Sequence record: OP114733
Direction: 5' to 3' (one strand)
DNA from: Escherichia phage vB_EcoM-pEB20
DNA: 64,000 nucleotides
In this document: positions 3,787 through 9,077 of the stretch, piece after piece
Layout: the number at the start of each line of letters is the position of its first letter
Numbering within the stretch: the first letter of the stretch is position 1
Translations under genes and position numbers: made by a program
Notes under the pieces: generated by a model
What the model was told of the DNA's origin: nothing
The model's input: the letters and a program-made list of their open reading frames with translations, nothing else
The model's database searches: none

Positions 3787-4130
3787 ATCCTATTTACGCT
3801 ATAGTAGCAGCTTTTGCTCTAGTTTCTACGGTAACAATAGTTGTCTTAAACAACAAAGTTGATTCGTTGAATACTGAATTAGCTTCTGTCAAAGAGGCCG
3901 CTAAAAACAATGCTAAAGTATTAGACGACTTCAAGGTTCAGTATCAGTCTATAGAAGAAATGACATATAAGAATCGTGTTTTAGTTGACCAACTTAAGGC
4001 CGAAAATGAAAAGCTCCGTAAGGATTCGAAGAAGAAGAACGTGGTGGCAAGTAAGCCAGGATTGGTCGAAAAACAAATCAACAGGTCCTTCGATTCCTTT
4101 GCAGAAGACCTCAGGAAGCTCTCAGAATGA
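3774..4130 (+). CDS. i-spanin (Rz-like; T4 pseT.3 equivalent)
   Basis: 118 aa; N-terminal TM helix (IYAIVAAFALVSTVTIVVL) then charged coiled-coil periplasmic domain; followed by overlapping lipoprotein ORF. Confidence 0.7.
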   Translation: MLKVNPIYAIVAAFALVSTVTIVVLNNKVDSLNTELASVKEAAKNNAKVLDDFKVQYQSIEEMTYKNRVLVDQLKAENEKLRKDSKKKNVVASKPGLVEKQINRSFDSFAEDLRKLSE

Positions 4131-4417
4131 TTAAATTAACCGCAGTTGTATTATCTATTGGTCTCCTAGTTGGATGTACTCAGGATGTGCTAGTAAGCCC
4201 TAAAGAAACTTTACATCCTTCATGGCCTACGCCTATTTCCGAATACAACCAGAAATGGCAAGTAAAGGTTATCAACGGTAATCCATGGGTTGGAATGCCA
4301 TTTGAAGACTCTCAAGAATTTCGTATCTGGTTAAACGACGTAAAAAGATATGTACATGACCAGAAGACTATGTTATGTTATTATCGTAGTGGTTTAAAAG
4401 AGGAAAAATGTCAATGA
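4127..4417 (+). CDS. o-spanin (Rz1-like outer-membrane lipoprotein; T4 pseT.2 equivalent)
   Basis: 96 aa; signal peptide with lipobox LLVGC; start overlaps i-spanin stop (ATGA). Confidence 0.7.
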   Translation: MIKLTAVVLSIGLLVGCTQDVLVSPKETLHPSWPTPISEYNQKWQVKVINGNPWVGMPFEDSQEFRIWLNDVKRYVHDQKTMLCYYRSGLKEEKCQ

Positions 4418-4632
4418 CTAAAGAACAGCATGAATACATTAAAGGGCTTATCTATGAATCTGAAATGGCGGCTATGATTTATGGACGCCAGATTCAACGA
4501 TTAGAATCTTTGCCTCCGACTAATGACCGTCTACTAGTTCAGTCTCGTGCTAATCTGAAAAATGAATACCAAAACAAGTGGGCAGTGGCGACTAAAGCTC
4601 TTCATGAGTATATCGAATCTTTAGTAAAATAG
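4408..4632 (+). CDS. Hypothetical protein (74 aa)
   Basis: ORF in early gene cluster, overlaps upstream stop. Confidence 0.5.
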   Translation: MSMTKEQHEYIKGLIYESEMAAMIYGRQIQRLESLPPTNDRLLVQSRANLKNEYQNKWAVATKALHEYIESLVK

Positions 4633-4661
4633 TTTACAAACTCTCGGGAGCAGAGTATAAT
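4633..4661 (+). promoter_or_regulatory. T4-type early promoter (GTTTACA-N16-TATAAT)
   Basis: Read directly: agTTTACAaactctcgggagcagagTATAATg. Confidence 0.65.
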
Positions 4662-4694
4662 GCTCCTATGGATAATAAAATTGAGGAAATCTAA

Positions 4695-4993
4695 ATGAAA
4701 ACATTGTTAGAGAATTACATCAAACTATCTGATAAGTATTCTGAAATGCTCCATGCGGAAGACCGAGAAGAATATGATATGGATTTGGCTAAAGAATTGG
4801 ATGCCGCTGGTAAAGCTCTTCGTAAAGCTGCCAAAGAAAAGGGAATGGATATTCCGCAGCTAAAAAGTCATCTGTATAAATTTAACTCTTCAAATATTAG
4901 CAGATATTCTAATAACAAATCATATGCAGAACAATGTAAAGGACGGCGAGAGCATAACATTCGTATTCTTGAAACTTTCTTAGGAATAAAATA

Positions 4994-4994
<1 letters not shown>
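4695..4994 (+). CDS. Hypothetical protein (99 aa)
   Basis: ORF with upstream GAGGAAA RBS and early promoter. Confidence 0.55.
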
Positions 4995-6081
<1,087 letters not shown>

Positions 6082-6763: not shown

Positions 6764-6793
6764 GTTTACAACATGGTGGAGTTGTGATACTAT
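6764..6793 (+). promoter_or_regulatory. T4-type early promoter (GTTTACA-N17-TACTAT)
   Basis: Consensus read directly. Confidence 0.6.
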
Positions 6794-6821: not shown

Positions 6822-7058
6822 ATGCTAAGTGAAAACCCAATTACAGTACACGAATTTCAGATTAAAGTAAAAGAATTTGCTCAAGCACTCATCAATAAAG
6901 TGTCTGAACGTTTCCAAGATGCAACATTACGAGTTATTCAAGAATCTCCACGTTCTTTTCTCATAATCGTTAATCCTAAAGATGGTGACCAAATTACTAA
7001 TCTTAAATTAGGCAGTGATGGTCTTGTTGAAGCAACTCGAGTATATGGAACACTATAA
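6822..7058 (+). CDS. Hypothetical protein (78 aa)
   Basis: ORF with GAGGAAATAG RBS downstream of early promoter. Confidence 0.5.
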   Translation: MLSENPITVHEFQIKVKEFAQALINKVSERFQDATLRVIQESPRSFLIIVNPKDGDQITNLKLGSDGLVEATRVYGTL

Positions 7059-7178
7059 TGAGAGCTATCTCATTACTATCGAGAATGGTCATAAATCTGA
7101 GCACTACCAACTTAGCCTGTCTAATCCGGTTAAAGGTATTGTTGAATCAGAATCTGTTTATATCTCCTAAGGATTGTT

Positions 7179-8171
7179 ATGTTACCTGTCGTCGGAAAAC
7201 TTATTTCTCCAAAAGAACTGGCTGAGATTATTCCTTTGTCGGAAGCTTACGCATCACAAGTGGCTTCTCATCGCGAACAAGTTAATTCGATTATGAATGG
7301 TGAAGACCCACGCAAACTTATTGTTGTAGGTCCTTGTTCAATTCATGACCCTATTGCTGCTGTTGAATACGGCAAACGTCTGGCTGAACTTCAAACTCGT
7401 CTTCCTAATGTTCTGTTAGTGATGCGCGTTTATTTTGAAAAGCCTCGAACTACCGTAGGTTGGAAAGGTCTTGTAAATGATCCATATCTTGACGGAAGTT
7501 TTGATATGAACCACGGTCTTATAGTTGCACGAACATTGTGTCGTAAACTTCTACGTATGGGACTTCCATTAGCAACTGAAGTATTAGACCCATTCACGAT
7601 TAAGTATCTTTCTGGTATTTTCTCATGGGTTGCTATTGGCGCCCGTACGACTGAAAGTCAGACACATCGTGAAATTGCTTCAGGTCTACCGATGTGCGTA
7701 GGCTTCAAGAACGCAACCAATGGTTCTATTAAAGTAGCTACAGACGCGATGTATAGTGCCGCCTGGCCTCATCGGTATATGGGTATGGACGTCGATGGTA
7801 CTGTAGGCATTGTTGAAGCTGAAGGTAATCAGAATACGCATATCGTATTGCGTGGCGGGACCAACGGCCCGAACTATCATTCTTCTGATATTCAAGAAGC
7901 TTCTAACAAAGCAAGGGCAGTAGGTCTGAATCATTATGTAATGGTTGACTGTAGCCATGCAAACGCTGCCGGGCATTATAGCAATCAAATTGGTATTGGT
8001 AAAAATTTAGCAGCTAATGATTTGGTCAAAGGAATTATGATAGAATCATTCCTACATGAAGGAAATCAAAAAATTTCTGATAATATGTCCTATGGCGTTT
8101 CCGTTACCGATGCGTGCATCAGTTGGGAACAAACTAAAGAGCTGTTAACTTATATTAATAAGGTTCAATAA
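7179..8171 (+). CDS. 3-deoxy-D-arabino-heptulosonate 7-phosphate (DAHP) synthase, class I (AroG/AroF/AroH-like)
   Basis: 330 aa; clear similarity along full length to recalled E. coli AroG (VVGPCSIHD, MRVYFEKPRTTVGWKGL.NDP, GARTTESQ.HRE.ASGL, GFKN.T.G.IKVA.DA, H.ANA, ESFLHEGNQ, TDACI.WE); AAGGA RBS 8 nt upstream. Confidence 0.88.
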   Translation: MLPVVGKLISPKELAEIIPLSEAYASQVASHREQVNSIMNGEDPRKLIVVGPCSIHDPIAAVEYGKRLAELQTRLPNVLLVMRVYFEKPRTTVGWKGLVNDPYLDGSFDMNHGLIVARTLCRKLLRMGLPLATEVLDPFTIKYLSGIFSWVAIGARTTESQTHREIASGLPMCVGFKNATNGSIKVATDAMYSAAWPHRYMGMDVDGTVGIVEAEGNQNTHIVLRGGTNGPNYHSSDIQEASNKARAVGLNHYVMVDCSHANAAGHYSNQIGIGKNLAANDLVKGIMIESFLHEGNQKISDNMSYGVSVTDACISWEQTKELLTYINKVQ

Positions 8172-8752
8172 TGAAAGCTAGCACATACCTTCAGATTGCA
8201 TATCTGATTTCTCAAGAATCAAAATGTTGTTCATGGAAAGTTGGCGCAGTCATTGAAAAAGATGGACGCATTATTTCTACAGGTTATAATGGCTCTCCTT
8301 CAGGTGGTACAAACTGTTGCGAACATGCATCCGAAAACGGTTGGTTGAAGAATAAACCAAGCCCGGTCATCGTTGCTGGTCATAAAGAAGGTACTACAGC
8401 ATTTGGACGGGTGGATAATTTTGTTTTGGCTAAAGAACATCGAGCGGCTCATAGTGCATGGTCTGCTAATAATGAAATCCATGCTGAACTGAATGCAATT
8501 TTATTTGCAGCTCGTAAAGGTAATTCTATTGAAGGTGCTACGTTGTATACGACGCTTTCTCCATGTCCTGATTGCACTAAAGCTATTACACAGTCAGGTA
8601 TTAAAAAGGTTGTATACGCAGAATTATATGACAGATCTCCTGAAAATTGGGCAGACATTCTAAAACAAGCCGGTATTGAAGTAATTCAGTACTCTCGTAA
8701 TAATCTTCGTTCTCTGAATTGGGAACAAATCCGAAACTTTTGTGGTGAATAA
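8171..8752 (+). CDS. cd: dCMP deaminase
   Basis: 193 aa; zinc motifs HAE and PCxxC; matches T4 Cd length and position. Confidence 0.9.
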   Translation: MKASTYLQIAYLISQESKCCSWKVGAVIEKDGRIISTGYNGSPSGGTNCCEHASENGWLKNKPSPVIVAGHKEGTTAFGRVDNFVLAKEHRAAHSAWSANNEIHAELNAILFAARKGNSIEGATLYTTLSPCPDCTKAITQSGIKKVVYAELYDRSPENWADILKQAGIEVIQYSRNNLRSLNWEQIRNFCGE

Positions 8753-8753
8753 T

Positions 8754-9050
8754 ATGATTTTAACTGAACAAGAAACTATGGTTCTTCGTGAACGTATTAA
8801 AACTATTCTGTCTGTAGGCGTTCATTGTGTTGTATTTGAAAAGGCTAACGGTGAGGTACGCACTATGTTTGCTTCGCGCGATGAACTTGAAGTCAAATAT
8901 GAAAATAACAATCCGGCAACAGAAGTTCGTTCTGAACCTCGTGAATCAGTTCGAGCATTCGATACCAAGTTAGGTCAGTGGCGTTCTTTCCGCCTTGATA
9001 AAGTAATTTCGGTTGATGGTACTCCGGTAGAACGTTTGCTTCTTATGTAA
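8754..9050 (+). CDS. Hypothetical protein (98 aa from ATG at 8754)
   Basis: ORF between cd and gene 31; ATG immediately after cd stop. Confidence 0.5.
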   Translation: MILTEQETMVLRERIKTILSVGVHCVVFEKANGEVRTMFASRDELEVKYENNNPATEVRSEPRESVRAFDTKLGQWRSFRLDKVISVDGTPVERLLLM

Positions 9051-9052
9051 TA

Positions 9053-9077
9053 TGCTTTACGAATAGTATGGTATTAT
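9053..9077 (+). promoter_or_regulatory. MotA-dependent middle promoter (MotA box TGCTTTA, 12-nt gap, -10 TATTAT)
   Basis: Box and -10 read directly; upstream of gene 31. Confidence 0.55.

Follow-up and report, generated by a model that had tools for sequence, protein, structure and literature searches.

The window considered here is a stretch of 64,000 nucleotides from Escherichia phage vB_EcoM-pEB20 (sequence record OP114733), a Mosigvirus-type T4-like coliphage of which a 2.7-kb region shares 98-99% identity with many phages in GenBank. Downstream of pseT it carries, at 7179..8171 (+), a gene for a 330-residue 3-deoxy-7-phosphoheptulonate (DAHP) synthase, referred to below as DAHPS. The product belongs to the AroF-like type I-alpha enzymes and keeps the active site of this family, and the pocket by which the E. 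coli isozymes are feedback-inhibited is rebuilt in it in a manner shared by the whole clade of T4-like phages that carry the gene. The features of the locus are as follows.

5182..6081, + strand: pseT (polynucleotide kinase/phosphatase), the conserved anchor of the locus, assigned by profile and by comparison with T4
6765..6793, + strand: T4-early-type promoter-like site GTTTACA...TG...TACTAT, between the cd.3-like and cd.2-like genes, found by consensus match
6822..7058, + strand: cd.2-like gene (DUF7320, phrog_1504), which in other genera, too, is conserved just upstream of DAHPS
7045..7170, + strand: 41-residue open reading frame (ORF; full-length match to phrog_15876), between the cd.2-like gene and DAHPS
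7169..7173, + strand: AAGGA ribosome-binding site, 5 nt upstream of the DAHPS ATG and overlapping the stop of the preceding 41-residue ORF, from reading of the sequence
7179..8171, + strand: DAHP synthase (type I-alpha, AroF-like), 330 residues, assigned by profile, PDB, alignment and model matches
8171..8752, + strand: cd (dCMP deaminase), profile match
8742-9050, + strand: 31.1-like gene (Pfam WYL_2 / SH3 beta-barrel, phrog_1086)

The start of the gene is firmly bounded: an in-frame TGA lies upstream at 7143-7145, no ATG, GTG or TTG occurs from there to 7179, and AAGGA precedes the ATG. The short N-terminus of the product is thus real and not an artefact of gene calling. With 330 residues as compared to 350 in AroG, DAHPS lacks 20 residues, 8 of which are N-terminal (10 residues precede the conserved Pro, compared to 18 in AroG). 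These were also the values given in an earlier note on this DNA, written from the letters alone, which had described an ORF aligning over its whole length with AroG-type DAHP synthases and had placed it exactly. Database searches, which that note had proposed, returned significant similarity throughout. The Pfam model DAHP_synth_1 (PF00793) scored 252.1 bits (cut-off 25.5), the NCBIfam aroFGH equivalog TIGR00034 scored 427.5 bits over residues 6-327 (cut-off 173.2) and the subfamily model NF009395 scored 455.2 bits (cut-off 343), while the isozyme models for AroG (NF006723, 364.1 bits, cut-off 568) and AroH (NF009396, 385.7 bits, cut-off 463) gave scores below their cut-offs. Four NCBIfam models matched at E<=0.001, every one of them for DAHP synthase and none for KDO8PS (KdsA). 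In the PDB, the top match was the Tyr-sensitive E. coli AroF (6agm, E=1e-104), with Neisseria DAH7PS and then E. coli AroG coming next, and the identities to E. coli AroF, AroG and AroH were 50.8%, 46.8% and 43.2%, respectively. The gene probably descends from a Tyr-type (AroF-like) ancestor, and its product is predicted to be a catalytically competent, metal-dependent type I-alpha DAHP synthase that would form DAHP from phosphoenolpyruvate (PEP) and erythrose 4-phosphate (E4P).

For residue-level comparison, DAHPS was aligned with AroG, AroF and AroH of E. coli MG1655 and with 120 database homologues; the set used for the alignment and the tree comprised 123 sequences, 25 phage-type and 98 other. 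The metal ligands C53, H260, E289 and D311, which we take to correspond to C61, H268, E302 and D326 of AroG, are invariant across all 123. The residues that bind PEP and E4P, namely R83, K88, R90, T91, R156, K177 and R225 (R92, K97, R99, T100, R165, K186 and R234 in AroG), which include the KPRT motif, are likewise invariant in the 25 phage-type and the 98 other sequences. The core of the earlier note, a phage-borne class I DAHP synthase with an intact active site, is thus borne out by profile scores above the cut-offs and by the retained catalytic residues. Its choice of metal positions was right for Cys, His and Asp and has to be corrected for Glu: the ligand is E289, in 'IMIESF', and not the Glu of 'HEGNQ', which is E294. 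E289 is equivalent to E302 of AroG and E294 to E307. As both are conserved, the misplaced ligand leaves the conclusion of an intact active site unaffected.

The AlphaFold2 model of DAHPS (predicted local distance difference test, pLDDT, 91.2; predicted template modelling score, pTM, 0.91) is a (beta/alpha)8 barrel. Superposition by Foldseek, also suggested in the earlier note, gave a template modelling (TM) score of 0.94 to 1gg1, 1kfl and 5dcb (AroG and Neisseria DAH7PS) with a root mean square deviation of 1.7-1.9 A. The regulatory beta6a/6b hairpin is kept in the model, with strands at 198-203 and 209-214, and the N-terminal extension is present, although 8 residues shorter.

The residues on which feedback inhibition of AroG depends have been mapped by mutation. 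D146N and P150L confer full resistance and M147I and A202T partial resistance, S180F, L175D, L179A, F209A/S and V221A are also resistant, Gln151 is involved in inhibition and the side chain of Ser180/181 contacts the main chain of the inhibitor (PMC9529685). At five of these positions, and in the length of the N-terminus, the phage clade (25 sequences) and the other sequences (98) differ as listed below, in AroG numbering.

Position 150: Ile in 24/25 of the phage clade, Pro in 90/98 of the others
Position 151: Lys in 24/25 of the phage clade, Gln in 97/98 of the others
Position 175: Ile in 25/25 of the phage clade, Met or Leu in 85/98 of the others
Position 180: Pro in 25/25 of the phage clade, Ser in 96/98 of the others
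Position 209: Tyr in 25/25 of the phage clade, Phe in 96/98 of the others
Residues before the conserved Pro: 8-12 in the phage clade, at least 16 in the others

The corresponding residues of the window DAHPS are I141, K142, I166, P171 and Y200. The clade has just nine diagnostic positions, and five of these are found among the ten resistance positions of the literature (hypergeometric P=8.7e-7), and three further diagnostic positions (155, 156 and 223) adjoin literature positions. The canonical pocket of the feedback-inhibited isozymes (Pro150, Gln151, Ser180, Phe209 and a full N-terminal cap) is therefore not the pocket of this clade. The deleted N-terminal residues include the equivalents of Asp6/Asp7 of AroG, which help to bind the amino group of the inhibitor. 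For AroF, Jossek et al. are said to have found in 2001, with N-terminal deletion alleles, that the N-terminus is needed for inhibition by Tyr. The earlier note had proposed, on account of the shorter N-terminus, that the enzyme may be feedback-insensitive, and the deletion together with fixed substitutions at five resistance positions strengthens this plausible idea.

When set beside E. coli AroF (6agm/6agl), DAHPS has the same fold, length class, metal ligands, PEP/E4P residues and hairpin, as well as the same Gly at position 211 of AroG. It is, however, 26 residues shorter, lacks the 8-9 residues that precede beta0, has two internal deletions and a shorter C-terminus, and carries Ile, Lys and Pro in place of Pro148, Gln152 and Ser181 of AroF and Tyr in place of the Phe209 equivalent. 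Unlike AroF, DAHPS is thus probably not inhibited by Tyr, as far as can be judged from its residues. Engineered resistant alleles of AroG and AroF are altered in the same places (positions 150, 175, 180 and 209, with 151 implicated, and the N-terminal segment), but the phage residues differ from the engineered ones, and in the phages five changes and a deletion are fixed together and have long been conserved.

One could also consider DAHPS to be an ordinary Tyr-sensitive isozyme of the AroF type that merely adds capacity, in which case the pocket changes and the short N-terminus would be lineage noise. AroF, at 50.8% identity, is indeed the closest E. coli isozyme and the best PDB match, all clade members have the Tyr-type Gly at the specificity position 211 of AroG, and several records are annotated as 'aroF, Tyr-sensitive'. 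Nonetheless, the substituted residues are those at which mutations abolish inhibition, among them the Ser in contact with the main chain of the inhibitor, their clustering at resistance positions is far beyond chance, and the canonical residues are nearly invariant in the 98 bacterial homologues and in 53 further homologues from viral contigs that are described below. We consider this explanation quite unlikely.

The rebuilt pocket is itself strongly conserved, with an entropy within the clade of 0.17 as compared to a protein mean of 0.99; none of 10,000 random sets was as conserved. Such conservation raises the question of whether the enzyme is still allosteric and its pocket has been re-tuned to another effector, such as chorismate, prephenate, a nucleotide or a metabolite of the infected cell. 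That the pocket is frozen across genera only about 58-77% identical would agree with this, as would the nature of the changes, which bring a Lys and a Tyr hydroxyl into the pocket and do not simply fill it, the retained hairpin scaffold, and the neighbouring gene cd, whose T4 product is an allosteric enzyme according to its annotation. Conversely, the segment 141-190 of AroG holds catalytic residues and subunit contacts and is conserved in bacteria as well (entropy 0.29-0.70), so that conservation of the pocket need not mean ligand binding. Loss of the N-terminal cap, moreover, takes away part of the pocket, and none of the present data points to a candidate ligand. A re-tuned pocket thus appears unlikely, though it deserves to be kept in mind.

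As a control, 63 loci from IMG/VR were scored for the pocket signature. The T4-like loci carry the remodelled signature in 10/10 cases, while the other 53, from metagenome-assembled genomes (MAGs) of giant viruses and from prophage-like contigs (similarly divergent, at 40-53% identity), have Ser180 and Phe209 in 53/53, Pro150 in 51/53 and Gln151 in 47/53, with N-termini of 13-53 residues. The notion that virus-borne DAHP synthases lose regulation in general is ruled out, as these 53 homologues keep the canonical pocket. Among 150 representatives of global diversity, of which the 128 with a single domain were scored, no bacterial donor with the phage pocket signature was found. Pro at position 180 occurs in 21/128 of them and short N-termini in 20/128; as both recur in divergent lineages, this kind of change is not unique to the phage clade.

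The other virus-borne DAHP synthases (of HJ05, the giant-virus MAGs and the prophage-like IMG/VR contigs) resemble DAHPS in being type I enzymes with intact catalytic tetrads, but they are independent lineages of 38-53% identity outside the T4-like clade. Aeromonas phage HJ05 (79 kb, not T4-like) encodes at 3899-5062 a homologue of 387 residues and 38% identity, annotated only as a hypothetical protein, with an intact tetrad, a long His-rich N-terminus and a pocket that is non-canonical in its own way (Ala/His/Pro/Val at positions 150/151/180/209 of AroG). About 35 giant-virus MAG contigs hold canonical enzymes of 40-47% identity with long N-termini, which could be genuine viral metabolic genes or cellular contamination of the bins. 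Two of the representatives (799 and 730 residues) either contain two DAHPS-like stretches or are longer proteins with a C-terminal DAHPS domain, and are fusions or tandem duplications.

With regard to the age of the gene, the slot after cd.2 is common to Mosigvirus-type phages, Kanagawavirus PEi26, Marfavirus PWKp18, Winklervirus X20 and Bragavirus PM2, with one or two small ORFs between DAHPS and cd in X20 and PM2. The 25 phage-type proteins group as a single clade in 200/200 bootstraps of a neighbour-joining tree of the 123 sequences, and the nearest bacterial sequences are about 53% identical to the phage protein. Identities between genera are about 0.58-0.77 for DAHPS and run parallel to those of cd (0.65-0.89) and gp31 (0.45-0.77). 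The ratio of nonsynonymous to synonymous substitution rates (dN/dS) is 0.13-0.22 at a dS of 1.3-2.3, which is near saturation, and is comparable to that of cd and pseT. A tblastn search found DAHPS in 212 phage records (124 of Escherichia), full-length in all, while pseT was found in 1,719 (630 of Escherichia). For the close group the counts agree, as 138 records have pseT and 139 have DAHPS at >=95% identity. These 139 records and the slot shared by at least five genera answer the question, raised in the earlier note, of whether close relatives have the gene. They also limit its description of the gene as inserted, which is correct relative to T4 only; otherwise the gene is old, syntenic and vertically evolving in several genera.

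The earlier note had further described the coding sequence as more GC-rich than its neighbours, in keeping with acquisition from a bacterium, and had proposed a comparison of composition. This comparison supports the first part to a modest degree, as the GC content of DAHPS is 41.4% against a gene mean of 37.9% (rank 7/77, z=1.4). At third codon positions (GC3), in contrast, DAHPS has 29.6% against a mean of 28.9% (z=0.13), so that the excess is confined to codon positions 1 and 2. In the other genera, too, GC3 goes with that of the surrounding phage genes (0.18 in PM2, 0.37 in PWKp18), so that it matches the phage background in five genera, while it is 0.50 in E. coli aroF and 0.57 in aroG. 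As GC3 is phage-like, the excess GC reflects amino acid content and not foreign origin, and the second part of the claim falls. Phage-like GC3 and a maximum identity to bacteria of about 53% rule out a recent horizontal transfer. Transfer from a cell must have taken place once, but long ago.

The same data bear on the possibility that the gene was captured recently from a host, that it is a passenger in decay, or that it encodes a KDO8P synthase or another aldolase. Such a view could call on the slightly raised GC, on the fact that DAHP_synth_1 also spans KDO8P synthases and on the phiC120 genome paper, which mentions lipopolysaccharide besides the DAHPS domain (PMC8022965). Yet GC3 is phage-like, bacterial sequences are at best about 53% identical, purifying selection is evident and the gene is full-length in 212/212 records. 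The aroFGH equivalog cut-off is passed widely, moreover, and the NCBIfam matches include no KDO8PS model. The equivalog score, GC3, tree and selection effectively refute all of these forms, which we regard as extremely improbable.

Turning to the surroundings of the gene, the order in the window is pseT, cd.5-like to cd.2-like, the 41-residue ORF, DAHPS, cd, 31.1-like and 31, while in T4 it is pseT, cd.5, cd.4, cd.3, cd.2, cd.1, cd, 31.2, 31.1 and 31, without DAHPS; the locus of Gaprivervirus SP18 is arranged as in T4. Comparison of the pseT-31 gene order thus agrees with the earlier statement that T4 has no such gene at this locus. The placement of DAHPS between small ORFs and cd was also correct, but these ORFs had been described as pseT-distal, and they are homologues of T4 cd.5-cd.2 and not of the pseT.N genes. 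Of the genes that flank cd in T4 and SP18, cd.1 (upstream) and 31.2 (downstream) are absent from the window. The 31.1-like gene directly follows cd, with an overlap of 10 nt if the GTG at 8742 is the start. The 41-residue ORF shows weak similarity to the C-terminal half of cd.2 family proteins (phrog_1504, E=1.8e-5; SFLIIVN.../SYLITIE...), which suggests a partial tandem duplication of cd.2. Homing endonuclease genes adjoin pseT in two genera, in PM2 (1606-2322) and in SP18 (5317-6042). This marks the pseT-cd interval as a hot spot of mobile insertion and fits the variable gene content found there. No tRNA genes were found by ARAGORN in the 64-kb window.

The TAA stop of DAHPS (8169-8171) and the ATG of cd (8171-8173) share one base (TAATG), an arrangement that points to co-transcription and translational coupling of the two genes. 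The promoter-like site at 6765-6793 stands at the place of the T4 early promoter Pe133295 and is a candidate source of a transcript with the cd.2-like gene, the 41-residue ORF, DAHPS and cd, although promoter-like sites are not enriched over shuffles here. A search for MotA boxes of middle promoters found none directly upstream of DAHPS. In the window as a whole, the MotA-box-type pattern TGCTTNA-N10-14-TANNNT occurs 18 times against 5.8 expected (0/100 shuffles reach 18), and one such site lies just 5' of gene 31 (e.g. 9053-9077, +). Antisense within DAHPS, at 7975-8003 (-), there is a sigma-70-like site TTTACC-17-TATAAT with TG (10/12 match). It is probably due to chance, as promoter-like sites number 9 against 10.2 in shuffles and are thus not enriched.

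Coupling to a gene of nucleotide metabolism brings up a different role, in which DAHPS would act as an E4P/PEP sink that pulls pentose phosphates to nucleotides, or would supply chorismate-derived cofactors (folate via para-aminobenzoate) for the synthesis of dTMP and hydroxymethyl-dCMP. Besides the probable translational coupling to cd, the presence of nrd and denA nearby in relatives would fit such a role, and a paper on Klebsiella phages names non-amino-acid products as possibilities (PMC11845039). This reasoning is purely inferential, however, and where a gene lies in the early regions of T4-like phages says little about what it does. Folate, moreover, is catalytic and not consumed, and no further shikimate or folate-branch genes were seen in a search confined to the locus. 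We hold this role to be very unlikely. A broader version, in which the conserved rebuilt pocket without its N-terminal cap is a new allosteric site for a non-aromatic effector, which would make the enzyme a switch adjusted to the infected cell, or in which the enzyme drains E4P/PEP toward nucleotide precursors and does not serve to make aromatic amino acids, is also rather doubtful.

Neither the gene nor its family is new. The earlier note had implied novelty, but the gene is annotated in well over 100 records, has a PHROG family of its own and has been named an auxiliary metabolic gene (AMG) in the literature, so that gene, family and AMG label are already in place. The match to phrog_5045, which belongs to the auxiliary-metabolic-gene category, has 605 bits (E=5.9e-182) and aligns residues 1-330 with positions 8-337 of the 341-position profile. 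The phrog_5045 copies of phages such as phiC120, APCEc01, JK45, PEi20/26, X20, PM2 and PWKp18 are the same gene at the same locus as the window copy. The window protein is 98-100% identical to those of 139 records, and that of phiC120 is 99.7% identical. For the Kanagawavirus copy, the Klebsiella-phage paper uses the AMG label and proposes a contribution to the synthesis of aromatic amino acids (PMC11845039). Most matching records are labelled phospho-2-dehydro-3-deoxyheptonate aldolase, DAHP synthase, aroF or AroG, while about one third of the close records still read 'hypothetical protein', and the remaining names do not agree with one another (AroG, aroF Tyr-sensitive, 'aldolase', 'phosphate synthase I alpha'). 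Among the neighbouring genes, the 31.1 homologue goes under the name 'tail fiber protein' in many relatives in GenBank and cd under ribD or tadA in some, which look like propagated mis-annotations. A literature search found no discussion of the regulatory site of phage DAHPS, and the evidence that this site has been rebuilt throughout the clade adds a testable and useful refinement.

In the reading that we favor, and which we consider reasonably probable as a whole, DAHPS is an early-expressed, deregulated enzyme that maintains the entry of carbon into the shikimate pathway in the infected cell. A T4-like lineage would have gained an AroF-like gene once, in the cd.2/cd slot, where it was kept by purifying selection. 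In the ancestor of the clade, the N-terminal cap would have been lost and P150I, Q151K, M/L175I, S180P and F209Y fixed (AroG numbering), and with the allosteric pocket so rebuilt, inhibition by Tyr, Phe and Trp is most likely gone. The gene would be transcribed early together with that for dCMP deaminase, as the site at 6765-6793, the TAATG overlap and the ribosome-binding site suggest. The shikimate pathway is entered through DAHP synthase, and it is at this step that its flux is controlled. In E. coli, flux is controlled through three isozymes that are repressed by TyrR/TrpR, are feedback-inhibited and are not re-synthesized after a shut-off of the T4 type. As the host isozymes are repressed, inhibited and not re-made, one deregulated phage enzyme may be enough to maintain the flow, and carbon would continue to reach chorismate and the aromatic amino acids in the course of virion production.

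Several points weigh against this reading and should be considered when it is applied. In the phage model, the regulatory element still has its beta0 strand and its beta6a/6b hairpin. Conservation of the pocket fits a locked 'on' state and equally fits another ligand. Insensitivity is an extrapolation, as the natural Ile, Lys, Pro and Tyr differ from the characterized mutants (Leu, Phe, Ala/Ser), and the role of the deleted N-terminal residues in binding the inhibitor is drawn from the AroG-Phe structure and the reported AroF deletion work. The literature search found two genome papers that mention the gene and no assay, complementation or expression work on a member of the clade. Finally, DAHPS is present in only about 12% of the phage records with pseT, and any benefit is thus conditional.

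The gene itself is ordinary insofar as it has long been annotated and catalogued. Phages that bear DAHPS are common in phage-therapy collections, which gives the function of the gene some practical value. If the favored reading is true, DAHPS would be a scaffold that has become feedback-resistant by natural evolution and might be useful in the bioproduction of aromatic compounds, and these phages would offer a clear case of a lytic phage that overrides the amino acid homeostasis of its host with one gene from which the feedback handle has apparently been removed.

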